From Escherichia phage RB43, in the sequence record NC_007023.1: a DNA stretch of 64,000 nt. The stretch is one strand, 5' to 3'. A program made the position numbers and the translations under genes. This document shows, one piece after another, positions 16,310-62,314 of this stretch. Every line of letters starts with the position of its first letter. Position 1 is the stretch's first letter. The notes below the pieces were generated by a model. It did not search any database. It was given only the letters and a program-made list of their open reading frames with translations, and was not told where the DNA came from.

Positions 16310-16574
16310 ATGATCGAACGTGAAAATGTAAATGTTATGGTTGAACTGGGTGATCGTGTTAAAGTTGACAATCCTGTAGATTTGCAACTAAATTAACCAG
16401 TTAGGCCAACGTCTTGTTGATCGGCTTCCTGCTGGTTATAATGTGAAACTTGTCCGTGACGGTCAGTTCTCCTTCCTGTTGGGGATCATTAGTCAACGTG
16501 GTATCGTTGAACAACAGTTCGGAATCCAATGGAATCCGGTATCTAAATTTGTTACTTGGGCTGGTGTCCTATGA
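16310..16574 (+). CDS. hypothetical protein, apparently split by a 1-nt indel at an AAA run (about 87 aa if fused)
   Basis: Strong RBS AAAGGAG before ATG 16310; 28-codon ORF then protein-like reading continues in +1 frame to TGA 16572-16574. Confidence 0.4.
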
Positions 16575-16840
16575 ATGAAACAAAAAATCCGAGTGATATA
16601 GTTGAGGTTCATGAAGCATGGATTCTCACTGATAAAGATAAGGTTCGGTATGGCTGTCTGTTCGGTTTAGTGTGTTTAGACCCAGAAGTAGACATAATGA
16701 CTAGCCCGATTGTATCTTATAGTCATCCAGCGAACACGGAATTTGTTGAAGTGATTACGCGATCTGGTAGCACGTATCGCGTAGTAAATCCAGATTCTGA
16801 TTTCATGAAGCAGTTATTAACCGTGATGGATGACAAATGA
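16571..16840 (+). CDS. hypothetical protein (89 aa)
   Basis: ATG 16571 overlapping upstream stop (ATGA). Confidence 0.5.
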   Translation: MNETKNPSDIVEVHEAWILTDKDKVRYGCLFGLVCLDPEVDIMTSPIVSYSHPANTEFVEVITRSGSTYRVVNPDSDFMKQLLTVMDDK

Positions 16841-17037
16841 AAAATGTTATCGTAGCGGCAGTGATAATGTGCATCATATCCATTATACTTGTTATAATGA
16901 GCACACCAAACAAACCGACTTCTAAGATAACACCATATCAGTCGAGCAAGACAGAAGAAAGCTCTTGCTCGATGCCAATGTGTGAATCGTTGGGTGGTCA
17001 TGATGCAATTGCTTTACAAGTTATGTTTGGAGATTAA
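16837..17037 (+). CDS. small membrane protein (66 aa)
   Basis: Hydrophobic N-terminal helix VIVAAVIMCIISIILVIM. Confidence 0.5.
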   Translation: MKNVIVAAVIMCIISIILVIMSTPNKPTSKITPYQSSKTEESSCSMPMCESLGGHDAIALQVMFGD

Positions 17038-17562
17038 ATGAAATTACTTCATATGATCCGCGCCATAAAGCAAAGTCAGGGTTCTCGATGTATATCGAAC
17101 CGTGTAGGCGCTGTTATTGTAATGAATGGGCGTGTGGTTTCACAGGGTACGAATAATACGGTTGATTCTGATTGTCGATGCGCCGATCATAACAATCATA
17201 TGCTGAATGATGAAGGTAAGTTGAAAGCAATTCATCGACCAGAACATTCAGCATGGTCGAACGATAACGAAATTCACGCTGAAATGAAAGCGTTGCTAAG
17301 TGCTCATACTAATGGTATCATGCTTAATAACGCAGAGTTATACACAACCGCTTCACCGTGTCCGAACTGTGCAAAACACATCGAATGGTATGTTGCGATT
17401 GGTGCAATAACTTCTGTATATTTCCTCGATAAATACGATCGTGGTAATGATGAATGGATTTCGCGTTTGCAAAAATATGGTTGCAAAGTGGAACAAATTA
17501 AACGGGAAAAGTTGGAACCTCATATCAACTTTTCTAATGTAGTGTTTAACAACAATGAGTAA
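17038..17562 (+). CDS. cd: dCMP deaminase
   Basis: Cytidine/deoxycytidylate deaminase zinc motifs HAEMKAL and PCPNCAKHI. Confidence 0.9.
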   Translation: MKLLHMIRAIKQSQGSRCISNRVGAVIVMNGRVVSQGTNNTVDSDCRCADHNNHMLNDEGKLKAIHRPEHSAWSNDNEIHAEMKALLSAHTNGIMLNNAELYTTASPCPNCAKHIEWYVAIGAITSVYFLDKYDRGNDEWISRLQKYGCKVEQIKREKLEPHINFSNVVFNNNE

Positions 17563-17566
17563 CAAA

Positions 17567-17911
17567 ATGTCTGAACTGAAAGTAAAAGCATCTTTTGAAT
17601 ATGTGATTATCGAAACTGTCGCGCGTCCTGCTGGTTCCGAAATCGTTTCAGAATCTGGATTCCTTATTGGAATTCGTCAGCAAGGCGAAGAACCGATTTC
17701 TGGTAAAATCGTTTCTGTAGGGCCGGATGTACCGGAAGAAAAAGCAAAAGAACTGTTGGGTAAAATGGTTCCTCTTCCGAAAGGTCATATGGCAAATGTT
17801 CCTGATCCAGATTTGGTGAAGGGTGTTATTAGCGCGGAAGATGCACGTACCAAAGAAGTAAAATACGTTTCCGCACATTATAAAGCTGTTCAAGCAATTT
17901 ACGAGATCTAA
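17567..17911 (+). CDS. 31: Co-chaperonin gp31 (GroES-like)
   Basis: MSELKVKASFEYVII...VSVGPDVPEE...YVSAHYKAVQAIYEI aligns with T4 gp31. Confidence 0.85.
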   Translation: MSELKVKASFEYVIIETVARPAGSEIVSESGFLIGIRQQGEEPISGKIVSVGPDVPEEKAKELLGKMVPLPKGHMANVPDPDLVKGVISAEDARTKEVKYVSAHYKAVQAIYEI

Positions 17912-17913
17912 TC

Positions 17914-18165
17914 ATGGCTAAATCTATTCAAGCAATTATCGCTGATACTGTCAGCAAGTCTAAAAAACTGTTTGACAAAGGCGATATCCTGGAAGCCCCC
18001 GCGCGTATTGACGTGATGACAGCAATGATCATCGATGCGCATCAGGGTAAACTTAAATCCCGTGCCGATGAAGTCATGGCATACATCGTCCAGTTCGAAG
18101 ACGTATGTAAGTATGCGAAAGGTGTAGATCCGCTGGTACAAGAAATTTACCGTAAGCAGTTCTAA
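17914..18165 (+). CDS. rIII: putative rIII lysis-inhibition accessory protein
   Basis: 83-aa ORF immediately after gene 31 as in T4 (rIII 82 aa); called from size and synteny. Confidence 0.5.
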   Translation: MAKSIQAIIADTVSKSKKLFDKGDILEAPARIDVMTAMIIDAHQGKLKSRADEVMAYIVQFEDVCKYAKGVDPLVQEIYRKQF

Positions 18166-18171
18166 AAATTT

Positions 18172-18248
18172 GGCCCTTTAGCTCAATTGGTAGAGCGAAC
18201 CCCTCATAAGGGTGTGGTTTCCGGTTCGAGTCACGGAAGGGGCCACCA
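18172..18248 (+). tRNA. tRNA with anticodon CAU (Met or Ile2), atypical T-arm
   Basis: 7-bp acceptor stem GGCCCTT/AAGGGCC, D-arm GCTC-AATTGGTA-GAGC, anticodon loop CTCATAA, T-loop TTCGAGT, 3' CCA; T-stem needs removal of A18233 to be canonical. Confidence 0.65.
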
Positions 18249-18407
18249 AATTAGGGTGCTGGCGCAATGCCGTTAAATGGTTCCGAATATGCAACCGTAT
18301 CTTATGGGATCGGCTCTGTTGGTATCGGGTAATAGGTTCCCTGGAATGCAGGGTGAAGTAAAGAAACTCCCAGCCCACAAATTAAATTAAACTTAAAGAG
18401 AAATGAA

Positions 18408-18836
18408 ATGAATACATCTGGTCTGATTACCCTGTTTAAACTGGCTCCGAAAATGCGTGATATTCTTGTGCATCCTCATGGACACTATAACGAAGAACTC
18501 ATGCGACTATTTCAAGAAGAAATTCCTGATTTTGAACGCGTGTTTGGTGATGCGCTTACCGCATATTCTACACAGGGTTATCTTGCAGCACCGTTAGTAA
18601 ACAACCCCGAAGAATATCGACGGACTTATTTCAACTGGCAGATTATTACACTGATTAAGCGTAGCGGCATTACCCCGACAAACTACAAGCTTTTAACAGT
18701 TGACGCGTCGAAATTTTTGATCCAATATATGATCACGGGTGGATTCAAAAACGAACTCGTACCAGTTGATAATGATGCGTTGCTGGAAGAATTCGACGAC
18801 GCAAAACATTTAATCGATGCAATGAAATCTATGTGA
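18408..18836 (+). CDS. hypothetical protein (142 aa)
   Basis: ORF with AGAGAAATGAAATG start context. Confidence 0.55.
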   Translation: MNTSGLITLFKLAPKMRDILVHPHGHYNEELMRLFQEEIPDFERVFGDALTAYSTQGYLAAPLVNNPEEYRRTYFNWQIITLIKRSGITPTNYKLLTVDASKFLIQYMITGGFKNELVPVDNDALLEEFDDAKHLIDAMKSM

Positions 18837-18843
18837 GGTTTAT

Positions 18844-19125
18844 ATGCAGTTTCGTGAAAAGATGCTATATCATCCAGACGGACATTTTGAGCAAGTATTT
18901 GTTCCGATGTCTCCGGTTAAATTCAAAGAACCCTACGGCGTTACTTTTAAAGAGTGGAAATCAAACCTCCATAAAGACGACTACCGGAAGAAATTCAAAT
19001 TTAATGAATGCTACGTTGAAGATGATCCCTATGATCAGGACGTGTGCGGGGAAACAAACCCAATCATTGAACGAACACCGGAAGAACTTTACGAATCTGT
19101 AATAACCGCAGCATACGAAATTTAA
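18844..19125 (+). CDS. hypothetical protein (93 aa)
   Basis: ORF with GAGG RBS. Confidence 0.55.
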   Translation: MQFREKMLYHPDGHFEQVFVPMSPVKFKEPYGVTFKEWKSNLHKDDYRKKFKFNECYVEDDPYDQDVCGETNPIIERTPEELYESVITAAYEI

Positions 19126-19166
19126 TCAACAGGCTATCTTCGGATAGCCTTTTTTCTGGAGAAACT

Positions 19167-19733
19167 ATGCGCTATTTAAAATACGCAAGCTGGATCTTAC
19201 TGGTTCCGGTAGACATTATCACAGGTGTTCTTGCTATCCTGTTAGCCCCCTTTGTGGTTCCGTTCTATGATGAAAAAGTAGGACATCTGCCTAAAGGGTT
19301 CCGATGGATGGAAACCTATGATAACCCGATTGATGGTGACGGTGGACACATCGAACGCTGGAAAGATATTCGCAAATGGGGCGCTGTCGGTGTCTATGCT
19401 CAACGTGTGGCGTGGCTATGGCGTAACAAGGCGTATAACTTCGCGTATCATGTGTTGGGGCGTGAGTCTATATCACACACCTACTGGAAAGGAAACAAAC
19501 TGGTAGACAGCAGTTCAAGCGATCCTAAACATCATGGCTTCCTGGTGATGTGGAACGAATCTGCGTGGGGTGTATTCGGTTTCGTGCCGTGGCTACGTAT
19601 CCATAACATTCAATTCTGTCTGCGTGTCTATTGCGGGTGGAAACTGAAATCGGAAGTAAACAACCCAGACAACAAAGACCGTGTGATGCTGGCATTCCAC
19701 ATCAACCCGTTCCGGTTCTATAAAATCAAGTAA
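19167..19733 (+). CDS. membrane-anchored hypothetical protein (188 aa)
   Basis: N-terminal TM segment WILLVPVDIITGVLAILLAPFVV then Trp-rich soluble domain. Confidence 0.55.
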   Translation: MRYLKYASWILLVPVDIITGVLAILLAPFVVPFYDEKVGHLPKGFRWMETYDNPIDGDGGHIERWKDIRKWGAVGVYAQRVAWLWRNKAYNFAYHVLGRESISHTYWKGNKLVDSSSSDPKHHGFLVMWNESAWGVFGFVPWLRIHNIQFCLRVYCGWKLKSEVNNPDNKDRVMLAFHINPFRFYKIK

Positions 19734-19742
19734 AGGTAATAT

Positions 19743-20105
19743 ATGAAAGCGTATCAAATTTTAGAAGGTTTACATACTGGTACTATCTATCTGGAAGAAG
19801 GAAACGATGTTCGGATCGTAGTATCAAAAACTCTCGAAGTGGATTCAGTGATCGGAAAATCTCGCGTTGTACCATTCGCAAAACGTGAAGTTGATATTGA
19901 GTTTCAACCGACTGTTAAAGTTGAAGGTGGACAGCACCTAAACGTGAATGTGCTACGTCGCGAAACCCTGGAAGATGCTGTGAAACATCCTGAGAAGTAC
20001 CCACAGTTAACGATCCGCGTTTCAGGTTATGCAGTTCGCTTTAATGCACTGACTCCAGAACAACAGCGCGACGTTATCGCCAGAACCTTTACGGAAAGCA
20101 TGTAA
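19743..20105 (+). CDS. Autonomous glycyl-radical cofactor (GrcA/YfiD-like)
   Basis: C-terminal [58 protein letters not shown] with RVSGY glycyl-radical motif; closely resembles enterobacterial GrcA from memory. Confidence 0.8.
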
Positions 20106-20329
20106 TGTCTATTGAAGATATCAAGGGGTATAAACCCCATACTGATGAAAAAATTACGATCGTGAATCGTATCAAAGCAGCAGAAAATGAACTGGGTGCT
20201 ATCCTGGATGATCTTGATAAACGATATTCAGGTGATTACGCCTGTTCAGATCTGGAATCACACACAGAAAAAGAACTTGATGAAATGCTCGAACGTACAC
20301 ATCAAATTCAATGGCAAAAGACCGACTGA
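20105..20329 (+). CDS. hypothetical acidic protein (74 aa)
   Basis: ORF overlapping GrcA-like stop (ATGTAATG context). Confidence 0.5.
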   Translation: MSIEDIKGYKPHTDEKITIVNRIKAAENELGAILDDLDKRYSGDYACSDLESHTEKELDEMLERTHQIQWQKTD

Positions 20330-20391
20330 AAGAAGCCTCTATGTGGGCGTGTCGTGCGGTGTTCCAGCCAGAAGAAAACTATTAAAATCAA

Positions 20392-20419
20392 GCCGTTGCC
20401 GAAAGGTGACGGCTTTTTT
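20392..20419 (+). terminator. Rho-independent terminator
   Basis: GCCGT...ACGGC hairpin followed by TTTTTT. Confidence 0.6.
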
Positions 20420-20440
20420 CGTTTATATCGAAAATAATGC

Positions 20441-20469
20441 TTGCGTTGAATCCGGCTTTCTTGTATCTT
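20441..20469 (+). promoter_or_regulatory. Conserved promoter cassette (TTGCGT-N17-TATCTT)
   Basis: Same -35/17-nt/-10 architecture as six other copies; spacer contains CCGGCTTT. Confidence 0.5.
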
Positions 20470-20487
20470 TAACCACGTAGGCAAGAC

Positions 20488-20545
20488 AACTTAACTTTGA
20501 GGATGACATTATGAACAACTTAACTTTGAGGATGACATTATGAAA
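20488..20545 (+). repeat. 29-bp tandem duplication spanning RBS and start codon
   Basis: AACTTAACTTTGAGGATGACATTATGAAC (20488-20516) repeated at 20517-20545 with one mismatch; first copy creates a 10-codon mini-ORF whose TGA overlaps the second ATG. Confidence 0.85.
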
Positions 20546-20829
20546 ACTTACAACATGAAAGACCTGGTTGCTTCAAAACTCGTCGTGAAGCCCGTGCGTA
20601 TGTTCTGGCGGCTGGTAAAAATACCTCTGCTGTAATCGACCTGGGTACTGATAAAGAGGTTGGTGCTCGTTGGGCCGCTGTTGTGGTTATCGCTGTCCCT
20701 GTTACCCCTGCTAAAACTCTGGTTCTGGGTGCTCGCAATAGCGAAACTTTGAACACCAGCACTTGCAATAACAGAGGAGTTCATAGTGTCAAAGTGTTCA
20801 AACGTCGCAGCATTGGTGCGAGGGCTTAA
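20540..20829 (+). CDS. hypothetical protein, apparently frameshifted (about 96 aa if one A is added to the AAAA run near 20575)
   Basis: ATG 20540 gives 31 codons; protein-like reading continues in the -1 frame to TAA 20827-20829 with no in-frame start of its own. Confidence 0.4.
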
Positions 20830-21038
20830 TGATGGTAAATTTCAAAGCAGGTGATCTTATTTCACCAAAGAACCGAGAATGCATTAAAGAGTTCCCATAT
20901 TGGGAAAATCTGGAGATTGTATCTTTCTGCTCTGATTTGTGTGAAGCGGTAGTACGTCAAAAGGATGGTTGGATGTGTAATCATTTTAACCTCGACCCAG
21001 AATTTGGTGAAGAGTTCGAAGTTGTTGGGAGTGTATGA
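20829..21038 (+). CDS. hypothetical Cys-containing protein (69 aa)
   Basis: ATG overlapping upstream stop (TAATGATG). Confidence 0.5.
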   Translation: MMVNFKAGDLISPKNRECIKEFPYWENLEIVSFCSDLCEAVVRQKDGWMCNHFNLDPEFGEEFEVVGSV

Positions 21039-21039
21039 A

Positions 21040-21244
21040 ATGAGCAAAACCAAAGAATTAGAACAGAAAGTATTGGGGTTCATGAGTAACAGCGAAGATC
21101 GCTATGCGAAACACCTCATTGTTGAACTGATCACCGAGTACGCCGCCGTGACAAAGAGATAAAGATCTGAAAGATGAAAAGCGTGTGGTTCGCGAGGTTG
21201 TTGTAGAACCAGTTGAATACAACTTTGGCCCTGGTGGTGCATGA
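21040..21244 (+). CDS. hypothetical protein, apparently split at an AAA run near 21155 (about 67 aa if fused)
   Basis: ATG 21040; stop at 21160-21162 but protein-like reading continues in +1 frame to TGA 21242-21244. Confidence 0.4.
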
Positions 21245-21471
21245 TGCGATATGGTAAAAAAGACTATGTTCTTATAGTCGGTCAGCAATACGTAAAGCGT
21301 GATTTCTTCGGCGAACTGTTCCTTTCGAACAATCCTGAATTGATGTACTCATTCGAAACGGAAGAAGACGCGTATATTGCTAAGAACAACAGCAGAAATG
21401 CAGATATTCGTAACTTTGCTCGCGTATACGAGCGCAACACTTTAATAACTTACGAGGCATGTGATCAATGA
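21241..21471 (+). CDS. hypothetical protein (76 aa)
   Basis: ORF with ATGA overlaps on both sides. Confidence 0.5.
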   Translation: MMRYGKKDYVLIVGQQYVKRDFFGELFLSNNPELMYSFETEEDAYIAKNNSRNADIRNFARVYERNTLITYEACDQ

Positions 21472-21698
21472 AATACGTTTTAGAATATTGCGAACATGAG
21501 TTCACCGAAGACATGATGAACAAAATGCGGGTGTATAACCAAAATATTACCAGCATCACCCCTGTTACAGCTTGTCGTGAATTCGTGGGTTATTCGTTTA
21601 CGATTTACACAAATTCAGAAGATGACGCAACCGCATATCTGAAAAGCATTAATGCAATCTTCGACAAATTCGAAAAAGTATGGAAGGTAGGTTACTAA
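21468..21698 (+). CDS. hypothetical protein (76 aa)
   Basis: ORF MKYVLEYCEHEF... Confidence 0.5.
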   Translation: MKYVLEYCEHEFTEDMMNKMRVYNQNITSITPVTACREFVGYSFTIYTNSEDDATAYLKSINAIFDKFEKVWKVGY

Positions 21699-21861
21699 TG
21701 AATTTTATCAACGCAGCATACAAGAAATTTTCGACGCGCTGGAAGCCTGGAAGACACGCACAGACGTTTCTATCACTTCGGCATCCAACGGTACTACATA
21801 CGACCGTTACGACCCTTCTCGTGGCTTACACAAGCCGTATGAGACTAAGGAATCAAAATGA
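21698..21861 (+). CDS. hypothetical protein, apparently frameshifted near AAATTTT at about 21690-21710 (about 54 aa if fused)
   Basis: ATG 21698 (MNFINAAYKK) then protein-like -1 frame EIFDALEAWKTRTDVSITSASNGTTYDRYDPSRGLHKPYETKESK ending TGA 21859-21861. Confidence 0.35.
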
Positions 21862-22010
21862 AGTATTACGGGTTTAAAACGAGTCATTACGGTAAAGCGT
21901 ACCGAACTGATAACATCGATCGCAAACGTCCGTATTATGATTCTCTGGTACGTGCAGGTCGTAAACGTGCTCGCCAGGAAGGGAAGAAGGAAGGAGAAGA
22001 CCGTGGTTGA
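21858..22010 (+). CDS. small basic protein (50 aa)
   Basis: AAGGAA RBS before ATG 21858. Confidence 0.5.
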   Translation: MKYYGFKTSHYGKAYRTDNIDRKRPYYDSLVRAGRKRARQEGKKEGEDRG

Positions 22011-22155
22011 TAATTCAGATCTGAATGAAGCACTTCGTTCTATTACTGCGAATACTAAACCGAAAAAGAGAACAGGAGAAATCATCTTTTTATGTGTATG
22101 GTATTTTGTGTTTAGCTTTGTTGTTGGCGCTGCATTTGCGAAATGGTTCTTATAA
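22003..22155 (+). CDS. small membrane protein (about 50 aa, GTG start)
   Basis: AGGAGA RBS before GTG 22003; hydrophobic C-terminal helix IIFLCVWYFVFSFVVGAAFA. Confidence 0.4.
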   Translation: MVDNSDLNEALRSITANTKPKKRTGEIIFLCVWYFVFSFVVGAAFAKWFL

Positions 22156-22595
22156 TGGATATCGGATCAGGTAGTCAATACCCATCATGCGCATTGAGCA
22201 ACTTTGCACCGCATCCGTTTACATTCGACGGGGTAGAATGTGCATCAATGGAGGGCTTTTTACAAAGTCTGAAATTTAGCAATCCAGATATGCAAGCGCA
22301 TGTGTGTACTCTGGTCGGTAAAGCCGCGAAGTTCAAAGGCAAAAAGAAAAAATGGTGGACAACTCAAACCCTGTATTGGAAGGGTATTCCGATACATCGT
22401 GAATCCGAAGCCTATCAGATCCTTATCGAAAACGCGTACAATGCGTTGTTCCTGAATGAAGGGTTTCGCCGTGCGCTGAAAGCAACCGGAAAAAGTACCT
22501 TGACTCATTCAATGGGAAAGAATAAGATGAATGAAACGGTGCTCACTGAACGTGAGTTTGTGCGAAATTTAACCCGACTAAGGGATCTGTTATGA
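22143..22595 (+). CDS. NADAR-domain (YbiA-like) protein
   Basis: N-terminal NADAR signature LSNFAPHPFTFDGVECASMEGFLQSLKF; about 150 aa typical of the family. Confidence 0.7.
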   Translation: MVLIMDIGSGSQYPSCALSNFAPHPFTFDGVECASMEGFLQSLKFSNPDMQAHVCTLVGKAAKFKGKKKKWWTTQTLYWKGIPIHRESEAYQILIENAYNALFLNEGFRRALKATGKSTLTHSMGKNKMNETVLTEREFVRNLTRLRDLL

Positions 22596-22856
22596 GTGAA
22601 AAAGAAAGAGTAGAATGCGTGTTCCTGTTCAAAGGCGCGATTAATCCATTAGCGTTACTGTATGCACAACATGCATTACGTTCAACGTTGATTCAGAGTG
22701 TTATCTATAAAGGCAGGTGTGTATTATGTTACCATCGGCGCAAATAACATGGTTGTTATTGAATCCTATGTTAAGGAATGCGCATCAAACGGCGTTGTCT
22801 TTGATAAAGTCGATTTTGATGCTGGGGTAGATGCTGTTTATATGTATAAGGGTTGA
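22592..22856 (+). CDS. hypothetical protein, apparently split at an AAA run near 22709 (about 88 aa if fused)
   Basis: ATG 22592 overlapping NADAR stop; reading continues in +1 frame to TGA 22854-22856. Confidence 0.4.
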
Positions 22857-22857
22857 T

Positions 22858-23055
22858 ATGAGTTACGTAGTTTATTTTGATTGTTCGGATCTCGATCCGT
22901 TCGTTCTTCAACAGGCAAAGAAATATCATCAAGATGTCGTTGGCATTGGTGTAACAAATGATGATATGTTGTGCATCGAATTTGAATATTATCGGACATT
23001 TGAGCGTGAACAATTCCTGGGTGAATTGAATGCATTCAAAAGTACCCTTTCTTGA
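22858..23055 (+). CDS. hypothetical protein (65 aa)
   Basis: ATG 22858 (MSYVVYFDCSDLDPF...). Confidence 0.5.
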   Translation: MSYVVYFDCSDLDPFVLQQAKKYHQDVVGIGVTNDDMLCIEFEYYRTFEREQFLGELNAFKSTLS

Positions 23056-23073
23056 TCGTTATGAGGTTATATC

Positions 23074-23586
23074 TTGACAGAACTTGATGAACTCATTGAC
23101 AGTTTACGAATAGATTTCGAAGCTGGTAAGTGTTTCTGGGCTAAGAAGATAACCAAAAAGACTGTTGTTGGAGAAGAAGCGGGTTCCGTCCGTCCCGATG
23201 GTTATTGTAGAATCCGGTTCAAAGGAAAATATTACTACCGTCATCGAGTCATCTTTTATGCACGGAATAGGTTTCTTCCTGACGTTGTTGACCACATAAA
23301 AGAGGTTGACAATGGCGACGGTGTAGGTAATATTCAGGCAGCAACTCATCAACAGAATATGATGAAACAAAATATCAATTCGTTGAATAAATCTGGTTGC
23401 CCTGGTGTATCATGGGATACACAAAGAAACAAATGGCTTTCCACTATTAAAAAGGATGGAAAGAATATCTATATAGGTCGGTTTGCGTCTTATGATGACG
23501 CGGTTACTGCCCGAATTAACAAAGAAAAAGAACTATTTGGAAACTTTTATAATGAGCACAAACGCAAAGCCTGTAATTCTGACTGA
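23074..23586 (+). CDS. HNH homing endonuclease with C-terminal AP2 DNA-binding domain
   Basis: HNH motif region GYCRIRFKGKYYYRHRVIFYA...DHI...N...THQQN; AP2 domain GVSWDTQRNKWLSTIKKDGKNIYIGRFASYDDAVTARINKEKELFG; TTG start. Confidence 0.8.
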   Translation: MTELDELIDSLRIDFEAGKCFWAKKITKKTVVGEEAGSVRPDGYCRIRFKGKYYYRHRVIFYARNRFLPDVVDHIKEVDNGDGVGNIQAATHQQNMMKQNINSLNKSGCPGVSWDTQRNKWLSTIKKDGKNIYIGRFASYDDAVTARINKEKELFGNFYNEHKRKACNSD

Positions 23587-24181
23587 TATTGACGGGATCG
23601 CCGTAAAATGGCAGTCGGGGTTGCCGTTCTTTTTGTCTAAACACAATATGCCTACTGATATTGCTCTGGACATGGTCACCGATGAAAGATTTCGTGATAT
23701 GACCGAAATATTCGGGTGTGATCACCAACTGGCTAAAATCCTGATGGAAGAATATAACAACAGTTCGTTTATTCGCTATCTAAGCGCGTATGACGATGCG
23801 TTAGTTGTGATCAACCGTCTGAAAGCCAAATATGATTTCGTCGCTGTCACGGCGCTGGGAACCACTCCTACGGCAAGTCTGAACCGTATTGCAAACCTGA
23901 ACACATTGTTCCCGTCTGCATTTCGTGAAGTGATGGTCGTCGGGCATGGTGAAACAAAAACACATCGTTACCTGGAAGCGAAAGCCAAATACGGATCGCG
24001 GTTGGTTTGCTTTGTTGATGACCTTGCGGTAAACTTAAACGAGTGTCATAACGTTATCAGTCAGTTGCCGTTATTTCACATGTTGCGTGGTGAACGTGAA
24101 CAACCAAATGTTCCGCACAGTATCGTAAAATCATGGTTTGAAATTGAAGAGAAATTAGATGATCTTATCAATATTGAATGA
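23552..24181 (+). CDS. HAD-superfamily hydrolase (putative 5'-nucleotidase/phosphatase)
   Basis: N-terminal DxDG motif ILTDIDGIA; about 210 aa. Confidence 0.5.
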   Translation: MSTNAKPVILTDIDGIAVKWQSGLPFFLSKHNMPTDIALDMVTDERFRDMTEIFGCDHQLAKILMEEYNNSSFIRYLSAYDDALVVINRLKAKYDFVAVTALGTTPTASLNRIANLNTLFPSAFREVMVVGHGETKTHRYLEAKAKYGSRLVCFVDDLAVNLNECHNVISQLPLFHMLRGEREQPNVPHSIVKSWFEIEEKLDDLINIE

Positions 24182-25682
24182 ACTTGCATCGACTCTGAAA
24201 ACCTCAGAGAAGGAAGCAATTTTAAAACGTAATGCAAACAACCTATTGTTGAAAGAGATTTTCCGAATTACGTACACAAAACAGATTATGTTCTATGTGC
24301 GTAAGTTTCCCCAGGTGGACGGCAAACCAGGAACAACCCCGCTATCAAATGCAATCGCGGACCTGATGTCCGATTTAGCATCGCGGAAGTATACAGGTAA
24401 TGCAGCCCGCGATCGCCTGATGGATATTGTGTCATCAGTAAACGAGAACGATCGCGAAGTGTTGCGCCGTATCATTAACCGCGATCTTGAATGTGGTGCG
24501 GGTACAACTCTGCCAAACCGCGTATGGAAGAAACTTATTCCAGAACAGCCTCAATGCCTCGCTACGCCGTTTAGTGAAAAAGCCTTAAAACGTATTCGCT
24601 TCCCTGCTTACTCTCAGCTTAAAGCCGATGGTGCGCGTTGTATGTCGGATCTGTTAGAAGACCAGATTCGCAAAGCAACCCGCGCTGGAAATGAGTATAC
24701 AGGTTTGGTTGATCTGGATAAGGATTTGAAAAAGATCCGCGAATATCTGGGTTATGATGTTGTGCTGGATGGAGAATTGATTTATGTCCCTACTGAAAAA
24801 GCTGTTATCGAACCTGCAAGCGGGATTCCTTTTAGTCTTGCTGGGTTTATGGATGATGACGACGATGATATTTCTGGTCTTGTGGCAGATGTTCGACGGG
24901 AAACTACCGAGAACGAAACACTGGAAGAAGCGAAACGCGAAGAGGGCAACGGGATTGTAAACAAATCCCTGAAAGGCACTATTAGCGACGAAGAACAGCG
25001 CAACATTGTATATGTTGTCTGGGACATCATACCGTATGAAGTTTATTATGGCGATGCTCCGAGTGTTCAACCGTATTGCGATCGTTTGTCTATCCTGGAT
25101 GGTGCTCTGGCTGGTTCTGGGGTATCGTGTGTTAAGTTAATCCCTTCTCGCGTTGTGTATAACATTGCAGAAGCAAAACTGGATTACAACAACTATCGAA
25201 ATGACGGTAAAGAGGGTTCTATCCTGAAAAATACCGATTTCGTCTGGAAGGATTCACGCGTTGCGGACCAGGTTAAGTTGAAGAACAAAACCCCGATTGA
25301 ACTACGGATCATCGACGTATACGCGCATACCAAAGAACCCCATAAAGTAGGTGGTTTTGTGGTTGAAGACTTATCAGGCGAAGCCAGGACAAACACAGGT
25401 TCCGGTCTGACTGATACAGACTACCGCTATGATGAAGATGGTATTACGCGTGTGTATATCCCGTTAGAAGAACGCGGAGAACTGGATCGCGAATACATCA
25501 TGGCGAACAAAGATGACTATATCGGCGCTATCGTCGAAATGGAAGTTGACGGACTCCAGAAGTCTAAGACGCGTAAGAAGGGCGAACCTGAATACAGTTT
25601 CTTCTTACCAATCATCAAGAAGATTCGACGCGACAAGACCGAACCGGATGACATTCACGTTATCTTTGCAGATTTGTTTTAA
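24159..25682 (+). CDS. 30: ATP-dependent DNA ligase gp30
   Basis: MILSILNELAS...KADGARC (adenylation KxDG)...collinear with T4 DNA ligase; 507 aa. Confidence 0.92.
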   Translation: MILSILNELASTLKTSEKEAILKRNANNLLLKEIFRITYTKQIMFYVRKFPQVDGKPGTTPLSNAIADLMSDLASRKYTGNAARDRLMDIVSSVNENDREVLRRIINRDLECGAGTTLPNRVWKKLIPEQPQCLATPFSEKALKRIRFPAYSQLKADGARCMSDLLEDQIRKATRAGNEYTGLVDLDKDLKKIREYLGYDVVLDGELIYVPTEKAVIEPASGIPFSLAGFMDDDDDDISGLVADVRRETTENETLEEAKREEGNGIVNKSLKGTISDEEQRNIVYVVWDIIPYEVYYGDAPSVQPYCDRLSILDGALAGSGVSCVKLIPSRVVYNIAEAKLDYNNYRNDGKEGSILKNTDFVWKDSRVADQVKLKNKTPIELRIIDVYAHTKEPHKVGGFVVEDLSGEARTNTGSGLTDTDYRYDEDGITRVYIPLEERGELDREYIMANKDDYIGAIVEMEVDGLQKSKTRKKGEPEYSFFLPIIKKIRRDKTEPDDIHVIFADLF

Positions 25683-25708
25683 ATAGCACTTTTTGTTAAA
25701 GAAGCCCC

Positions 25709-25737
25709 TTGCGTAAGTGAGGGGCTTTTGTTATTGT
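25709..25737 (+). promoter_or_regulatory. Conserved promoter cassette (TTGCGT-N17-TATTGT) embedded in terminator hairpin
   Basis: CCCCTTGCGTAAGTGAGGGGCTTTTGTTATTGT followed by leader CATCGAAACGAAACAGACAAAAGGAAC. Confidence 0.55.
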
Positions 25738-25774
25738 ACACACATCGAAACGAAACAGACAAAAGGAACATCCC

Positions 25775-26044
25775 ATGAACATCAATAAAGAACTCGAAGG
25801 CAAAGTAATCAACCTGGCAGACCGTGCGCGGTTTGAAAAGCTGGCTAATGGTGGTGAATCTCTGGGTGATGCAGTAGCATTATTCGAAAGACTTCGTGTT
25901 AAACGTGTTGTAGATGGCTGGGTTATCGCTCTCCCTGTTGCAGACGAAGACAAAGCGGTTTACGATCCTGTTGCCGATTCATGGGATATTGAAATCTGTC
26001 TGGTTAATATTGAAGTAGAACTTTGCTTCGAGGAAGAAAAATAA
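25775..26044 (+). CDS. hypothetical acidic protein (89 aa)
   Basis: ORF downstream of conserved promoter/leader. Confidence 0.55.
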   Translation: MNINKELEGKVINLADRARFEKLANGGESLGDAVALFERLRVKRVVDGWVIALPVADEDKAVYDPVADSWDIEICLVNIEVELCFEEEK

Positions 26045-26057
26045 TTAATTAAACCAC

Positions 26058-26086
26058 TTGCACATCGCGAGGGGTTTTGATACATT
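26058..26086 (+). promoter_or_regulatory. Conserved promoter cassette (TTGCAC-N17-TACATT)
   Basis: TTGCACATCGCGAGGGGTTTTGATACATT followed by leader ATATCGAAACGAAAGGAG. Confidence 0.55.
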
Positions 26087-26115
26087 ACCCATATCGAAAC
26101 GAAAGGAGAAACATC

Positions 26116-26295
26116 ATGAAAGTTATGCACACTGCGAACCAACTTCAAAACGGCAACTACGCGATCCACGATGCTATCGGTGCGCTGGTTGGGGTTTATC
26201 TTCCTGGTAGCAAATACCTTGAAGTTAGTGGGAATACCTTTACTGATGTTGAAAACATCGAAGCAGCAATGGAAATCATTGGTGAACTGAAATGA
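26116..26295 (+). CDS. hypothetical protein (59 aa)
   Basis: ATG 26116 with AAAGGAG RBS. Confidence 0.55.
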   Translation: MKVMHTANQLQNGNYAIHDAIGALVGVYLPGSKYLEVSGNTFTDVENIEAAMEIIGELK

Positions 26296-26483
26296 GCAAG
26301 AAACTCGAAACATGGGAAACCATCAGCGAAGATCCGAATCTTCGTTGGTGTTGTGCGAAAACTGGTTTTGATGCTGCATGGGGTGCTACTCCAGAACAGG
26401 CGCGAGAAAACTGGGAACATCAGCAAATGTTCTTTGCGCATAAAACCCCATTCAATTATGACGGGAGTCACATAGCAGCATGA
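26292..26483 (+). CDS. hypothetical protein (63 aa)
   Basis: ORF with ATGA overlap. Confidence 0.45.
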   Translation: MSKKLETWETISEDPNLRWCCAKTGFDAAWGATPEQARENWEHQQMFFAHKTPFNYDGSHIAA

Positions 26484-26788
26484 AAGAGCTAAATCTATCA
26501 AAAGAAGAAGTTGAAAAGCGGATTGCCGAAGGACTTGAAGTGATCAAGTCTATCGACTGGGGAAAAGTGATTGATTCAATGCCTGATATCCCTGATACGA
26601 TTTGCCTTAATTGTGGGCGATCCGTAATGGTTGGAAAGTGCTGTGATAATCAGAATATCGTTATCATGGAAAGGAAAGAAGTTTCACCGGAAGTGTGGGA
26701 TCAGATTCAAGAAATCATCAAAAACCCACCAAAACCGACGAAACGTTTACGCGAACTTATGAGCAGGACACCACGTTATGAAAAATGA
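26480..26788 (+). CDS. hypothetical protein with CxxC...CC cysteine cluster (102 aa)
   Basis: ORF; ICLNCGRSVMVGKCCDN. Confidence 0.45.
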   Translation: MKELNLSKEEVEKRIAEGLEVIKSIDWGKVIDSMPDIPDTICLNCGRSVMVGKCCDNQNIVIMERKEVSPEVWDQIQEIIKNPPKPTKRLRELMSRTPRYEK

Positions 26789-27155
26789 ACCAAGCAAAAC
26801 TGTGCGCCTTATCCGTTGGGAAGGTAACGAACTCCGTTATGAAGACGGCGATCGTGAATTCGTTCATGAAATGCTGGCGCACAATCTGGGATTGAAAAAC
26901 GCTAACCTGGTGCAGATGCAGCAGACAGCAGATCCCGACACATGGCAATGTGTTATTGTCGAACTGAACCCTAACAAGGAATACACAGAAGATGAACTCT
27001 TTGTGCTTGTTCAGGACGTTCCAGCGCGTCAGAAATGCTTTATGATCGACATGCCACGGGAAAACTATGAGAACATCAAGAAAGCCCGTCAGAAGCCCAT
27101 ACACAACGTATTTGATTTGTTTATGGGCTATCATGAGGAACCGGAAACGGCCTAA
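26778..27155 (+). CDS. hypothetical protein (125 aa)
   Basis: ORF converging on gp27. Confidence 0.45.
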   Translation: MKNEPSKTVRLIRWEGNELRYEDGDREFVHEMLAHNLGLKNANLVQMQQTADPDTWQCVIVELNPNKEYTEDELFVLVQDVPARQKCFMIDMPRENYENIKKARQKPIHNVFDLFMGYHEEPETA

Positions 27156-28255
27156 GCCTCGCTTGTTTTGCTGTCGTCGTTAGTCGATGCCGCCACCTGT
27201 ACACATTCTAATGTTTGCAGGTGGAAATCTTTTGATACGTCACGAATACATTCAACAATCAAATATTTTCCCGCGTATTCGTCGCCTAATACTTCAATTA
27301 ATGCCCCCACTTTTACATCCATTCGACCTTGATTAATATCAAACTTAATCCGTTTTTCATAGCTGGACAGCAACTGACATTTAACCGCCTGGAATGGCTG
27401 GCCTTGTTTGTCTGGGTTCTGAAAGTTGGTATCATATACCGCGTTTCGGTTCATGGTGATCCACGCGTTCTCTATGTCTGTACTTGCGAGGATATCGCTA
27501 TACAGCTTTTTATCTGTCATTGAGAAGCTAAAGAAACTTGCATCACCTAATAATGTGGTGTTATCCTTATACGTAATGTATTCGCCTTTGGTAAACACCA
27601 GCGAATCACCTAAAAACGGGTTGCTCACGTTATACTTGTAAGCCTTGATCGGGGTTTGTGCAAGGATCTCCGTATTACTTTTCATAAAGATACCGGAACC
27701 ATCTTCCCACAAATAACAGAAGTCGGACGAATCAACGCTCTGACCATTATCCCTGATGTAATCAAACACGGTTTCATATGTCCCGCTTAAACATGCCGGA
27801 GGTATACGCACGTTTGATGCGTCAATCGTTGGGGTGATCAGTTTCTTATCGTTGTATAGTGCCGTCATGCACTCTGTAATCGTCTGTACGGCGTTATTAC
27901 TGAATGAACGGGAAAACTTACGACGAAACACCGTATGCACCGGAGAAAGGTTTAGGCGCAATATAGAGCGGTTCATATCATCCGTTTCTACGTTCGAATA
28001 CAGAACACCATAGTAATGCTGTTCCAACGTCTGATTATACTGGAAGGATACCTGTATGATCGGTTTCTCTGTCAACTGATAGATTAACTGGTTATCATAT
28101 ATCTGCATCAATGTTTCAGAAGTCCCGTTGATTATGGTCTTCTCACTCATTGAGACAAGGGCAGGTAGCAATTCAAGATAGACGTTATCAGCAAACTTTT
28201 CATATGTTGGATATAATTTAACCGATACGACACGGTTTATAACTTTATTGGACAT
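27152..28255 (-). CDS. 27: Baseplate hub subunit gp27
   Basis: 367 aa; pattern resembles T4 gp27; divergent from gp28 across TAAATA-containing late-promoter region. Confidence 0.65.
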   Translation of the reverse strand: MSNKVINRVVSVKLYPTYEKFADNVYLELLPALVSMSEKTIINGTSETLMQIYDNQLIYQLTEKPIIQVSFQYNQTLEQHYYGVLYSNVETDDMNRSILRLNLSPVHTVFRRKFSRSFSNNAVQTITECMTALYNDKKLITPTIDASNVRIPPACLSGTYETVFDYIRDNGQSVDSSDFCYLWEDGSGIFMKSNTEILAQTPIKAYKYNVSNPFLGDSLVFTKGEYITYKDNTTLLGDASFFSFSMTDKKLYSDILASTDIENAWITMNRNAVYDTNFQNPDKQGQPFQAVKCQLLSSYEKRIKFDINQGRMDVKVGALIEVLGDEYAGKYLIVECIRDVSKDFHLQTLECVQVAASTNDDSKTSEA

Positions 28256-28315
28256 TAGACATCCTCCCTTTATTCTATTTACTAAATAGTAAATATCGGG
28301 ATACTTGAGGCGATT

Positions 28316-30625: not shown

Positions 30626-30636
30626 GGGAAATTTAC

Positions 30637-31722: not shown

Positions 31723-31730
31723 GGGGAATA

Positions 31731-47171: not shown

Positions 47172-47199
47172 GATTATCTCCTTTCGTTTCAGTACCCCT

Positions 47200-47228: not shown

Positions 47229-47333
47229 GGGCTTTTTCAACTTATCGACAGAAAGGACAACTAAAAGAGTCGCCGCTTCCACCATGTTTACGACACGCCG
47301 ATTTCTCGATCGGTGTCATTGTTAAAATTTTCA

Positions 47334-50347: not shown

Positions 50348-50741
50348 TTATGTTATATCGTACCAGCATAAACCACGTTCATAAGCACGGATCTTATTGG
50401 CATTGTGAATGTTTTCATCCCATCCAATCACACCCGCTTTCATGCGTTTCAGTTCCTGGCGCATTTTAACGCGTACTTTTGAATCAATCTTTTTCTTTGC
50501 GATCGAAAGCATCGCGGGAGATATCACCATGCGCCTTGTTGCCGTCACGATTCAAATTGTTATCGAACCGGATATATGCGCAACCTGATTTATGTTTCCA
50601 GTTGGTTGTGTACCAACGAAGACCATCAGGATCGCGCCCGTGTTGTGCATAATACTCAGAATATGCCTTTGTCTCTTCGATCTGTTCCAGAGAAGAAAGG
50701 TCACGGATAGGAACATATTTGTTACGGTAAGTACGGCTCAT
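50348..50741 (-). CDS. hypothetical protein, apparently split at an A5 run (sense) near 50500 (about 129 aa if fused)
   Basis: Two overlapping protein-like frames joined by removing one A from GAAAAAG. Confidence 0.35.
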
Positions 50742-51711: not shown

Positions 51712-52200
51712 GATAAATCTACCGTTTTCATGTTAACGTAGGGATCGAAATGTACCACGATGATTGGATAGTCGCCAGTGGCCTTATCAATGATGTCATA
51801 GATGCGCATCCAATCGCCCCCAGCAAGCCCCGCACCAATAAGAGGGGTAACGATAGGCAATTGAACAGGACACGCCTTAGCGCGTTCTACAGCAGATTTG
51901 AAGCATGATTCAATCGCATCATAATCGACTTGTGGGCCTTCACCCCAAAATTTGTATTGGGTGTACGCGTTAAACAGAAGTTTGTTTCCGTCCTGATAAA
52001 CGGAGTTACGCCCCAACTTAGATTGATTGCCCTTCATCGTCATTGCGTCTTCTTTAAACGCACCAGGGATCTTTTTCTTCACTTCTTTGGCGATACCCGC
52101 GCCCATGTTACCAGAAACCAGTTACCACCCCATGAATTAGGTGTACATCGCGATTAAGGAACAGTTCAACCGCGTTACCTTTGATTTCTTTAATGATCAT
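51708..52200 (-). CDS. TARG1/OARD1-like macrodomain protein, interrupted by a frameshift
   Basis: N-terminal 30-codon ORF (MIIKEIKGNAVELFLNRDVHLIHGVV...) then +1 frame MGAGIAKEVKKKIPGAF... resembling the TARG1 CRMGAGIAVLFKKKFG core; frames join if one T is removed from sense GGTTTC or a 7-nt unit from GTTACCA-GAAACCA-GTTACCA. Confidence 0.6.
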
Positions 52201-59783: not shown

Positions 59784-60109
59784 ATAAGTTTATCCATGTG
59801 CATTAGGTTCCACATAACAGAGTCATACGAACCCAGTGAGCGGGAGTAAATTACACCCCAGGAACGATACGCTTTTTGAAACTCTTCCGCGCTGTTTGTA
59901 TCGCACGGCATATCATCACCAGAAGCGATCAGAAGTTTCAGAACCATCAGACTATTGAGCAGTTTTGAACTTGCGTCCTGTTCTCTCAGTTTAGACCAAT
60001 ATCTTTCGATAATCGCTTTTGCTTTCGGTTCAGTAATACGTCCGTTGTTACAACGTTCACGATACGCATACATCAGTTCATCGAGTATTTCGGTCATAAC
60101 ACACCCCAT
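59750..60109 (-). CDS. hypothetical protein (119 aa)
   Basis: ORF. Confidence 0.45.
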   Translation of the reverse strand: MGCVMTEILDELMYAYRERCNNGRITEPKAKAIIERYWSKLREQDASSKLLNSLMVLKLLIASGDDMPCDTNSAEEFQKAYRSWGVIYSRSLGSYDSVMWNLMHMDKLIWEVLEEEGIV

Positions 60110-60432
60110 TTACTTTTGATTCTGCTGCATTCTTCCTCACACTCTTTTTCCGCAAGGATTTTGCGAACAACAGTATTTCTGATTTTCCAGAGATAATCAA
60201 TCATCTGCATATCTTCGGGAGTGTGATAACCTTTCATATCACATTCAAATACGATAGCATCGCGTTCTGACATTGCCATTATCGCGGTAGCAGAACAAAT
60301 GGTCATCCCACTATATTTTTCAATCAACGATTCCAGTGTACGCTTTTCTGCCGGAAGGTCAATAGTTATCGGAACAGGACGGATTCTTGTAGTTGAATCG
60401 TCAAAGGATTGATAAATCATATCATCCACCAT
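60094..60432 (-). CDS. hypothetical protein (112 aa)
   Basis: ORF. Confidence 0.45.
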   Translation of the reverse strand: MVDDMIYQSFDDSTTRIRPVPITIDLPAEKRTLESLIEKYSGMTICSATAIMAMSERDAIVFECDMKGYHTPEDMQMIDYLWKIRNTVVRKILAEKECEEECSRIKSKWGVL

Positions 60433-60715
60433 ATTTGAGAGTATTCATATAACCGATGATGTATTCAACAACAGCATCGCGTTCTTCTTCACATTCATAT
60501 CCACCCCACGTTACCGACTGATTATGTGCTAAATGAAACGTAATCGCAGGTTTCCATGTTTTGTTAATACAAGGAATTTTAGCGTCGGTCTGAATCCATA
60601 AAACGTGCTCTACGTTAACAGGATAGTTAACACATTCCACCTCTGCGTTACTATTGTATACAAAATGGTCTGCGTATAAACGTTTATACGATTTAATTTC
60701 TGACACAATAATCAT
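60422..60715 (-). CDS. hypothetical protein (97 aa)
   Basis: ORF. Confidence 0.45.
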   Translation of the reverse strand: MIIVSEIKSYKRLYADHFVYNSNAEVECVNYPVNVEHVLWIQTDAKIPCINKTWKPAITFHLAHNQSVTWGGYECEEERDAVVEYIIGYMNTLKYGG

Positions 60716-60835
60716 TTTAACTCCACTGCATAAACATCGGTTTCAGGGGCTTTGTGTACGCGCATATCTTTACCACATACCGCATAAGCCGGACAGTTGC
60801 GACAACCGTTATGATCCGTGTTGCCTGTCAGTTCT

Positions 60836-61870
60836 TTACGGAACTGTTTTGTTCGCGGGTGTTCCCAGATATCTTTGATAAAAATCATCTGCTTCCAGAA
60901 CGTTCAAACCTTCGCCCCAGCCACCTTCAACCCAACGTTCGGTAAACGAGCAAGGGAAGAATTCGCCTTTTTCGTTGATGTAAGAGCTAAACATCGTCGC
61001 TTCGCAATCTTCCGCATACTGCTTGTATTGTTCGAAGTTCGGGTGTCCCTCCATCGCTTCAACGAAAGCGGGTGCTGAACAACTATCGAATCCAAATCCT
61101 ACACCAGAATCGAGGCAATATTCAACAAGTTTTTTGTATTGTTCGCGGGTGACGGTATCCCAGTTCTTACCGCGTCCCTTTTGTTTCAGACCCAGGAACA
61201 CGATCGCATTGACTTGTTTCAGGCGTGGATCGTTACGCACGGCATCAACAACGGTAAACGCATCATCATAGGTCTTTGAGCTAACCATGAAATGTAGGTT
61301 GATTTGCTGTTGTCCTGCTTCTGCCAGGTTCGCTACGGAATCGAAAGCAACATCGAAGCCAGCATGTTTATACACCGATACCGCAACAGCCCCAGCAACC
61401 GCCGCTAAACGCGCTGCAACGTCTTTTGATACATCAGCAATGGTAAGGTTCGGCACAATGCCTTTAGAACGCGCATAGGCCATCATATCAAACATATCAG
61501 GGTTTGTTTGTCCCTGTGCATCAGCACCGAGTGCGCATTGGGTTAACCAGGGCATTTTATCAATGATGGATTTGAAAGAAGCGAGATCCATATTGTAGCC
61601 GTTCGGGTTATTGGACTTGTAACAGAACCCACACAGCTTACCAGCAGGACCGTTGCATTTGGTAGTGACCTCAATATCGAGAATCTCAGGGAATGGGGCA
61701 TAAGTCGGATCGTTGTCAAAGGTTGTACCCCAACGAGCAAACTGACCAGTTTTAACGTTGAAATCGTAATTGTACCATTTGGATCTAGCGTGGCGCATAT
61801 CTCCAGCCTGGTAGATAAACAACGTAGGCGCTTTCATAACAGTATGTGCATTATTCATAATATTTCTCAA
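60836..61870 (-). CDS. Cys-rich candidate Fe-S / radical-SAM-like enzyme (344 aa)
   Basis: Cx8CxxC cluster in IEVTTKCNGPAGKLCGFCY plus C-terminal Cys cluster (GFDSCSAP...DCEATMF...FFPCSF); assignment tentative. Confidence 0.4.
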   Translation of the reverse strand: MRNIMNNAHTVMKAPTLFIYQAGDMRHARSKWYNYDFNVKTGQFARWGTTFDNDPTYAPFPEILDIEVTTKCNGPAGKLCGFCYKSNNPNGYNMDLASFKSIIDKMPWLTQCALGADAQGQTNPDMFDMMAYARSKGIVPNLTIADVSKDVAARLAAVAGAVAVSVYKHAGFDVAFDSVANLAEAGQQQINLHFMVSSKTYDDAFTVVDAVRNDPRLKQVNAIVFLGLKQKGRGKNWDTVTREQYKKLVEYCLDSGVGFGFDSCSAPAFVEAMEGHPNFEQYKQYAEDCEATMFSSYINEKGEFFPCSFTERWVEGGWGEGLNVLEADDFYQRYLGTPANKTVP

Positions 61871-62314
61871 AATTGAATGTGTGAACGGAATACAGCACGA
61901 GCGGTTACTTCATTATCAAACGGCATTGAAGTACCGGATTTTTCGTTTTCCACGTTAACGCGCCAGAAAGAAGAAATGTCGTTACCTTCAACATACTGAA
62001 ACAGCGTTACAGTTTTGTTTGGTAATTCGCGTTTGTCGATTTCATACTTTTTCATTTTTGCCACCAAAGCGGGATTGACGTTCTGCCATGAGTTCACGGC
62101 GATAATGTTTAACGTAAACCCCGTTGAGTTTACGCAGTTGTCCGAATACTTTGTTAAACAGGGCTTTCTTCGCCTTGTATTCGTCGGTCATGCGGATAGA
62201 CTCGATGGTCATCCCCATTTCATTTTTCGGATATGCTCTAAGTTCACTTCCTATATCAGAGCACCAGGATTCAAGATAGTCACGCTGGGTTTTGTATTGT
62301 TCAAACGTTAACAT
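61867..62314 (-). CDS. hypothetical protein, apparently split at an A5 run (sense) near 62060 (about 145 aa if fused)
   Basis: Two overlapping protein-like frames joined by removing one A from GAAAAAG. Confidence 0.35.

Follow-up and report, generated by a model that had tools for sequence, protein, structure and literature searches.

We analysed a stretch of 64,000 nucleotides (nt) from the genome of Escherichia phage RB43, sequence record NC_007023.1, hereafter called the window. It holds genes for a gp29-type baseplate hub protein, an NMN adenylyltransferase/Nudix protein, an SPFH/Band 7 protein, rI.-1, the macro-domain protein Tk.4, an endolysin and a radical SAM/SPASM protein, together with many small genes for hypothetical proteins, and 23 of these genes carry one-base insertions or deletions (indels) that disturb the reading frame (Table 1). 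We are highly confident that the breaks arose from errors of base calling or assembly in the Sanger-era record NC_007023 and do not reflect biology; RB43 itself almost certainly encodes intact proteins. The source record (NC_007023/AY967407, 180,500 base pairs (bp)) is the original RB43 genome of Nolan et al. 2006, and RB43 is grouped in Pseudotevenvirus. Exact look-ups showed that the open reading frame (ORF) fragments of the window match, byte for byte, the proteins deposited for RB43 as AAX786xx/YP_239xxx and named RB43ORFnnn.

By megablast, the closest records to the window are RB43-GVA (HE858210.2) and its orf057::gfp derivative (HE981739.1), with 99.9% identity, both of which were sequenced by Illumina (Perrody et al. 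2012, PMC3486835). RB43-GVA is not the stock sequenced in 2005 but a sister stock with about 20 years of separate propagation (PMC3157838). The same searches returned the Citrobacter phages Miller and CfP1 (~96% identity, first half of the window), Buttiauxella phage GuL6 (~97%, second half) as well as RB16 and Lw1 (84-89%). Window positions 14403-64000 were aligned in full with RB43-GVA (49.6 kb). Each indel was polarised against these five independently sequenced relatives, with 90-nt segments that carried either the window state or the GVA state, and each affected GVA protein was searched by tblastn against the relatives and the window. Moreover, a blind scan for frame breaks was made from the stop-to-stop ORFs of the relatives; it was noisy, owing to antisense frames and upstream extensions, and was therefore restricted to the coding strand.

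The alignment revealed 37 one-base indels and five substitutions, all within 16393-62998, where the indels span 16393-60880. Window 1-16392 shows no difference from GVA, with 1-14903 checked as 100% identical. None of the 37 indels is present in either of the two Illumina GVA records. While 34 of them lie in the 23 genes, three are intergenic. The frame is broken in 21 of the affected genes, whose products are in pieces, too short or end in a false terminus. In the other two, a +1 and a -1 event, 5 and 34 nt apart respectively in the endolysin and the NMN adenylyltransferase/Nudix gene, compensate each other, which keeps the length and scrambles residues. The window has an extra base at 20 indels and lacks a base at 17. 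T is the base in 18 events, A and G in 7 each and C in 5, so that 12 of 37 events concern G or C. Missing bases are all A or T (12 T, 5 A), whereas the G and C events are all extra bases (7 G, 5 C); this bias of direction suggests a systematic effect of the chemistry or the base-caller and not random noise. Two corrections are needed at each of 16393/16395, 21139/21160, 23051/23052, 44190/44205 and 46569/46644, and four within the 17 nt of 52112-52128. Four C in 17 nt, compensating pairs and a bias of base and direction are a pattern of base calling, unlike mutation.

We found that the relatives agree with RB43-GVA nearly throughout. Over the 37 sites and five relatives, the GVA length state is present in 128 of 136 informative comparisons, and at every site at least one relative agrees with GVA. 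Of the eight exceptions, some arise at the gp29 site, where larger indels found only in RB16 or Lw1 affect the alignment, and the others concern the intergenic positions 41879, 47216 and 57837. The window is also the odd one out against the relatives at all five substitutions. The protein searches agree: by tblastn, each affected product of GVA has a single-frame, full-length match in all relatives with the gene and is split or truncated in the window alone. Full-length forms likewise dominate the 90% protein clusters, from which the window fragments deviate in length: 457 vs 575-578 amino acids (aa), 132 vs 162, 85 vs 130, 77 vs 127-129, 130 vs 152, 92 and 117 vs 214, and 160 vs 170. The window fragments were not found in any Logan or ENA assembly, where the full-length forms are present. 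Exact-pattern scans of IMG/VR for the error cluster in the macro-domain gene gave no match for the window version and none for the GVA version.

Table 1. Differences between the window and RB43-GVA and the genes in which they lie. Positions are those of the window; relatives are Miller, CfP1, GuL6, RB16 and Lw1; protein lengths are those of the repaired frame unless given as deposited.
Feature	Position	Strand	State of the window	Relatives, deposited product or remark
Hypothetical, 88 aa, downstream of pseT	16310..16574	+	lacks two A (16393, 16395)	split between frames 2 and 3 in the window alone; 5/5 relatives have one frame
Hypothetical, 96 aa	20540..20829	+	lacks one T at 20568 (TT for TTT), codon 10	first 10 codons lost; GVA state in 5/5 relatives
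Hypothetical, 71 aa	21031..21244	+	lacks T at 21139 and 21160	GVA state in Miller, CfP1, GuL6
Hypothetical, 54 aa	21698..21861	+	lacks T at 21719, codon 8	first 7 codons lost, N-terminus lost or replaced
Hypothetical, 87 aa	22592..22856	+	extra G at 22712 (GG for G)	GVA state in 5/5 relatives
Hypothetical, 73 aa	22858..23077	+	lacks two T (23051, 23052)	C-terminal 9 codons hit; GVA state in RB16, Lw1
gp29-type baseplate hub, true length 576 aa	28894..30625	+	stray C at 30260 (AGA[C]AAG)	split at codon 456
Hypothetical, 214 aa	35361..36004	-	lacks A at 35776	deposited as two, RB43ORF114c (92 aa) and ORF113c (117 aa)
Hypothetical, 114 aa	39985..40330	-	extra G at 40293 (GGGG for GGG), codon 13	GVA state in 5/5 relatives
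Hypothetical, 170 aa	40330..40844	-	extra T at 40343, extra A at 40368	C-terminus altered; deposited as 160-aa RB43ORF121c, whose cluster has members of 170 aa among the matches listed, with one 333-aa exception
Hypothetical, 90 aa	41083..41356	-	extra T at 41207 (T5 for T4)	
Intergenic	41879		extra G (GG for G)	GVA state in Miller, GuL6, RB16, CfP1; Lw1 has its own T-run difference nearby
Hypothetical, 144 aa	41925..42358	-	lacks T at 41955	C-terminus altered; deposited as 156-aa RB43ORF126c
Hypothetical, 87 aa	44020..44281	-	lacks T at 44190 and 44205	
Hypothetical, 180 aa	46176..46720	-	stray G at 46569, extra T at 46644	three frames in the window; GuL6 shows the GVA state, other relatives too divergent in DNA, yet single-frame in protein
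Intergenic	47216		missing T	inside terminator-like hairpin AAAAGCCCTT..AAGGGCTTTT (47195-47245); stem AAAAGCCCTT/AAGGGCTTTT is a perfect 10 bp once the T is restored, 9 bp in the window
NMN adenylyltransferase/Nudix, 352 aa	47334..48392	-	extra G at 47940, missing T at 47974	~11 residues scrambled, length kept; Nudix and cytidylyltransferase domains; deposited RB43ORF138c alone in its 90% cluster
SPFH/Band 7, 304 aa	48569..49482	-	lacks T at 48638, codon 282	deposited as 297-aa RB43ORF139c
rI.-1 (DUF5856), 127 aa	49563..49947	-	extra G at 49728	deposited with 77 aa; other cluster members 127-129 aa among the matches listed
Hypothetical, 130 aa	50348..50741	-	extra G at 50516 (GGG for GG)	deposited as 85-aa RB43ORF143c; 14 other cluster members all 130 aa
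Hypothetical, 60 aa	51346..51529	-	extra T at 51425	deposited as 69-aa RB43ORF145c
Tk.4 macro-domain protein, 162 aa	51708..52200	-	four extra C (52112, 52119, 52126, 52128) in 17 nt	deposited with 132 aa
Hypothetical, 152 aa	56965..57422	-	lacks A at 57085	deposited as 130-aa RB43ORF158c
Endolysin, 131 aa	57432..57827	-	extra T at 57812, missing A at 57817	near-N-terminal residues changed; RB43ORF159c alone in its cluster
Intergenic T run	57837		TTT (TT in GVA)	RB16, Lw1 have the window state, GuL6 the GVA state; Miller, CfP1 differ again
Radical SAM/SPASM, 381 aa	60712..61858	-	extra A at 60880 (A5 for A4), codon 326	inside the SPASM domain; deposited as 340-aa RB43ORF169c
Substitution	18932		C (G in GVA)	G in Miller, GuL6, CfP1
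Substitution	26220		T (C in GVA)	C in Miller, CfP1
Substitution	52016		A (G in GVA)	G in GuL6
Substitution	61628		C (A in GVA)	A in 5/5 relatives
Substitution	62998		C (A in GVA)	A in GuL6
14-nt gene overlap	62042..62055	-		RB43ORF171c (90 aa, 62042..62314) and ORF170c (62 aa, 61867..62055)

Two of the broken genes can be followed through domain profiles. For gp29, the N-terminal part was deposited as the 457-aa RB43ORF103w and the C-terminal part is unannotated. The repaired protein covers positions 1-579 of PHROG 7361 ("baseplate hub"), the two window fragments covering 1-459 and 454-579, and the 12 other members of its cluster have 575-578 aa, bar one 71-aa fragment. Together with the position of the gene between those for gp28 and gp48, the PHROG match supports the name gp29 given in an initial annotation of the window made from its sequence alone. 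The label macrodomain given there to the break at about 52115 is confirmed, since repaired Tk.4 matches Pfam Macro positions 1-114, while the 132-aa window fragment begins at profile position 10.

The initial annotation had listed ten break sites and had proposed systematic homopolymer indel error in the assembly as the simplest cause, in preference to pseudogenisation. Nine of the ten sites are real, each lying 2-19 nt from a one-base indel relative to GVA: 16390 corresponds to 16393 and 16395, 20575 to 20568, 21155 to 21139 and 21160, 21700 to 21719, 22709 to 22712, 30258 to 30260, 41215 to 41207, 50500 to 50516, and 52115 to 52112, 52119, 52126 and 52128. Since ~26 indel loci of 41 nt each make up ~2% of the 46-kb span, such agreement is not chance. 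At these nine sites the protein is spread over two or three frames in the window, or N-terminal codons are lost (20568, 21719). The site at ~62060 proved to be a false positive, as the sequence there does not differ from GVA or GuL6 and holds an ordinary 14-nt overlap of two genes. RB43ORF171c ends in TGA at 62044-62042, and ORF170c starts with ATG at 62055 behind a GGTGG Shine-Dalgarno sequence. The geometry is equal in GuL6. In every relative the two are separate genes, with a different short overlap in Miller, RB16 and CfP1, and the two proteins are separate products in RB43, GVA, GuL6 and Logan or ENA assemblies.

The description of each break as one A or T added to or removed from a short run must be amended at four of the nine sites, namely the extra G at 22712 and 50516, the stray C at 30260 and the four C at 52112-52128. 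Moreover, three of the nine sites call for two or four corrections instead of one. The list was also incomplete, with more than half of the broken genes missed among the 23 genes and three intergenic positions hit by the 37 indels. Nevertheless, assembly error was the right choice over pseudogenisation or recoding, as all 37 indels are contradicted by the Illumina GVA records. Two checks that had been suggested, orthologues in related genomes and short-read data, point the same way: the five relatives carry the GVA state as counted above, and the Illumina sequence of the sister stock, being free of all 37 indels, does not confirm the breaks. The warning that ORF boundaries are unreliable here and that repaired frames should be used is well founded, for RefSeq and UniRef contain the broken fragments as their protein entries.

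As for homopolymers as the cause, the picture is mixed. Events that alter the length of a run of identical bases account for 35 of the 37, the other two being stray bases outside any run (30260, 46569), and arithmetic on the run counts gives a per-run error rate that climbs about 50-fold, from ~0.02% at length 1 to ~1.2% at length 4. However, most events fall in runs of 1-4, and the run-length effect does not amount to the signature of long homopolymers known from flow-based or nanopore platforms. The true run length at the events is 0 (2 events), 1 (6), 2 (10), 3 (11), 4 (6), 5 (1) and 6 (1). In their run-length changes and the rate climbing with run length, the errors resemble those of 454, Ion Torrent or Oxford Nanopore (ONT) sequencing. 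They differ in that 29 of 37 events lie in true runs of three or less, two are strays, all four bases are involved and the direction is biased; the concentration in runs of ~4-5 or more expected for those platforms is not seen in RB43.

A closer parallel is offered by the interrupted coding sequences that sequencing errors have left in finished Sanger-era genomes, for example that of Mycobacterium smegmatis (PMC1852416). There, too, adjacent ORFs fuse after a 1-nt correction, the breaks vanish on re-sequencing, orthologues are uninterrupted and the broken products have spread to protein databases; in RB43, by comparison, the local density is very high (~1 per kb) and the errors are confined to small novel gene clusters. 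Indel density in the window is 0 per kb in 1-16392 (P ~2e-5 if uniform), a part that contains rnlA and pseT according to the Miller and RB16 annotations. It reaches 1.35 per kb in the small-ORF cluster 16393-23052, falls to 0.08 per kb in the ligase/baseplate block 23053-35775, where gp29 is the single event, and is 0.99 per kb in 35776-62998. The original annotation had missed the homology of gp29 to T4.

This distribution may go back to the way the genome was finished. Nolan et al. 2006 (PMC1524935) reported that the plasmid shotgun libraries represented regions with novel ORFs poorly and that these regions came to light only in gap closure based on the polymerase chain reaction (PCR); from this description we take the record to be Sanger sequence. 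The small novel early-type gene clusters in which the errors concentrate would match the regions recovered by PCR closure, and such regions may have had thin, lower-quality Sanger read support, from which errors could arise. In genes with recognisable T4 homologues, errors would have been easier to spot and fix, and the lack of homologues may have let others pass. PCR gap closure thus plausibly explains the clustering of the errors. That the two RB43 sequences disagree has been in print since 2012, when Perrody et al. (PMC3486835) reported at least 107 nt differences between GVA and published RB43 without classifying them, 42 of which fall in the window. Neither Perrody et al. 2012 nor Petrov et al. 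2010 states that the RB43 differences are errors.

The main alternative is that the 2005 stock truly bore the frameshifts and the Geneva stock did not, which we consider very unlikely. The stocks have been apart for ~20 years, and the genes hit are mostly small accessory ORFs, which a phage kept in the laboratory may be able to do without. Single-base changes of run length that truncate accessory genes are a trait that the window shares with frameshift pseudogenes and phase-variable contingency loci; moreover, the window state at intergenic position 57837 is shared by RB16 and Lw1. However, pseudogenisation would have to yield 37 indels against five substitutions, a ratio of 7.4:1, where truly diverged relatives show 1:17 to 1:42 in the same region, which is more than 100-fold off. 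It would also have to place 2-4 indels within 5-75 nt, compensating pairs among them, with a base bias that is chemistry-like, and to leave fragments that outside the shifted stretches are 97-100% identical to the GVA proteins, with no decay in the flanks. The window states are derived relative to the five relatives, and the 37 breaks are not reproduced in the sister stock. Gene 29 of T4 is essential. A viable phage with gp29 broken at codon 456 of 576 is therefore unlikely, and pseudogenisation would require that such a break in the hub was tolerated.

Two further explanations can be set aside with more assurance. Ribosomal frameshifting or transcriptional slippage that joins the frames is hardly conceivable, even though several sites adjoin short A or T runs and programmed frameshifts are used in some phage genes. 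The overlap of two frames at a short A/T-rich stretch does recall the programmed -1/+1 frameshifting of tail assembly chaperones or of the dnaX type (A_AAA_AAG), but the RB43 breaks have no slippery heptamer, the runs of mostly 1-4 nt are far below what slippage needs, and several loci would need 2-4 shifts within few codons. No relative and no other RB43 record has a frame break at these positions and nothing is conserved there; since the breaks are absent from re-sequenced RB43 and from all relatives, we rejected programmed frameshifting and slippage. The remaining view, that the Illumina records of RB43-GVA are wrong and the window is right, is extremely improbable. It could appeal to a coverage of only ~99% and to the origin of both GVA records in one laboratory and one pipeline, but the five relatives, whose genomes come from other groups, side with GVA in 128 of 136 comparisons, the GVA state yields intact ORFs that match full-length orthologues everywhere, and Logan and ENA assemblies never hold the window fragments.

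Several points nevertheless weigh against attributing every difference to error in the 2005 record. Our comparison is one of deposited sequence records on both sides and not of original traces or GVA reads, and the Illumina coverage of GVA is ~99% (PMC3486835). Because GVA is a separately propagated sister stock, a few of the differences could be true polymorphisms. For the link between errors and PCR closure, the source is a general remark in the 2006 paper and not a record of each locus. Finally, the intergenic T run at 57837 is a truly ambiguous site, the sole one of its kind.

For the biology of the phage, errors in the record have no consequence, since the genes are intact in the phage. 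The RefSeq/GenBank records of RB43 and UniRef, however, still hold no fewer than 23 proteins of this 64-kb window in truncated, split or locally scrambled form, among them gp29 with 457 for 576 aa, Tk.4 with 132 for 162, rI.-1 with 77 for 127, the radical SAM/SPASM protein with 340 for 381, and the SPFH protein. RB43 is the name-giver of a Pseudotevenvirus species, and the fragments can therefore mislead comparative work. Possible effects are wrong ORF boundaries, inflated ORF counts, false singleton families and spurious candidates for pseudogenes or frameshifting. The errors survive preferentially in ORFan regions, in which no homologue could expose them at the time of annotation. For analyses of RB43, HE858210.2 or the repaired frames are preferable. 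Petrov et al. 2010 counted 292 ORFs in RB43 and 260 in RB16; split genes such as ORF113c/114c, and ORF103w with its unannotated C-terminal part, may add to the higher count of RB43.

One frame break is shared by all RB43 records. The coding-strand scan against the relatives found no window-specific frame break beyond the loci of the 37 indels, and the sole well-supported extra break lies in the gene Vs.4 (window 20105..20382). At ~20311 the window and both GVA records read CAATGG, where 5/5 relatives read CAA(T/C)TGG. With one T short, Vs.4 has 74 aa instead of 92-93. The protein is a member of Pfam Acb2_Tad1_hairpin, the intact form matching positions 1-58 of 58 and the RB43 form 1-31; the Acb2/Tad1 family consists of nucleotide sponges that act against the cyclic oligonucleotide-based antiphage signalling system (CBASS). 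Only the three RB43 records contain the 74-aa form. Over the 171 nt around the break, Miller, CfP1, IME-CF2 and Xman differ by this base alone, and insertion of one T at ~20311 yields a protein identical to Miller Vs.4.

A genuine pseudogene should show a break that is reproducible in independent sequencing, which we found only for Vs.4 at ~20311. We tentatively consider that this may be a real mutation of the RB43 laboratory lineage, in which case RB43 would make a 74-aa Acb2 with the last third of the domain missing. Just as well, it may be a 38th error that passed into the GVA record: a missing T is the commonest error signature, the next error is 257 nt off, and the GVA coverage is ~99%. 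An exact search with the neighbouring protein for an independent RB43 assembly around Vs.4 returned the RB43-GVA records only. Vs.4 would regain its normal C-terminus if a -1 slip took place at CAA_AAG (20315-20320), ahead of the premature TGA; this is speculative and far less likely.

Some minor observations concern the records used for comparison. At window 41631, a C-to-A change is present in the RB43-GVA orf057::gfp derivative only and not in wild-type GVA; it may be the mutant-only mutation mentioned by Perrody et al. The CfP1 record has frame discrepancies of its own relative to RB43, Miller and others at window ~18776-19050 and ~26120-26472, where one gene is shortened and two small neighbouring genes are fused into a 107-aa ORF; these are real differences or errors of that record. 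ARAGORN places a tRNA-Met at window 18172..18248 on the + strand. Its homologue is annotated on the + strand in GuL6, RB16, CfP1 and Lw1 and on the - strand in the RefSeq record of Miller, which is probably an annotation error.

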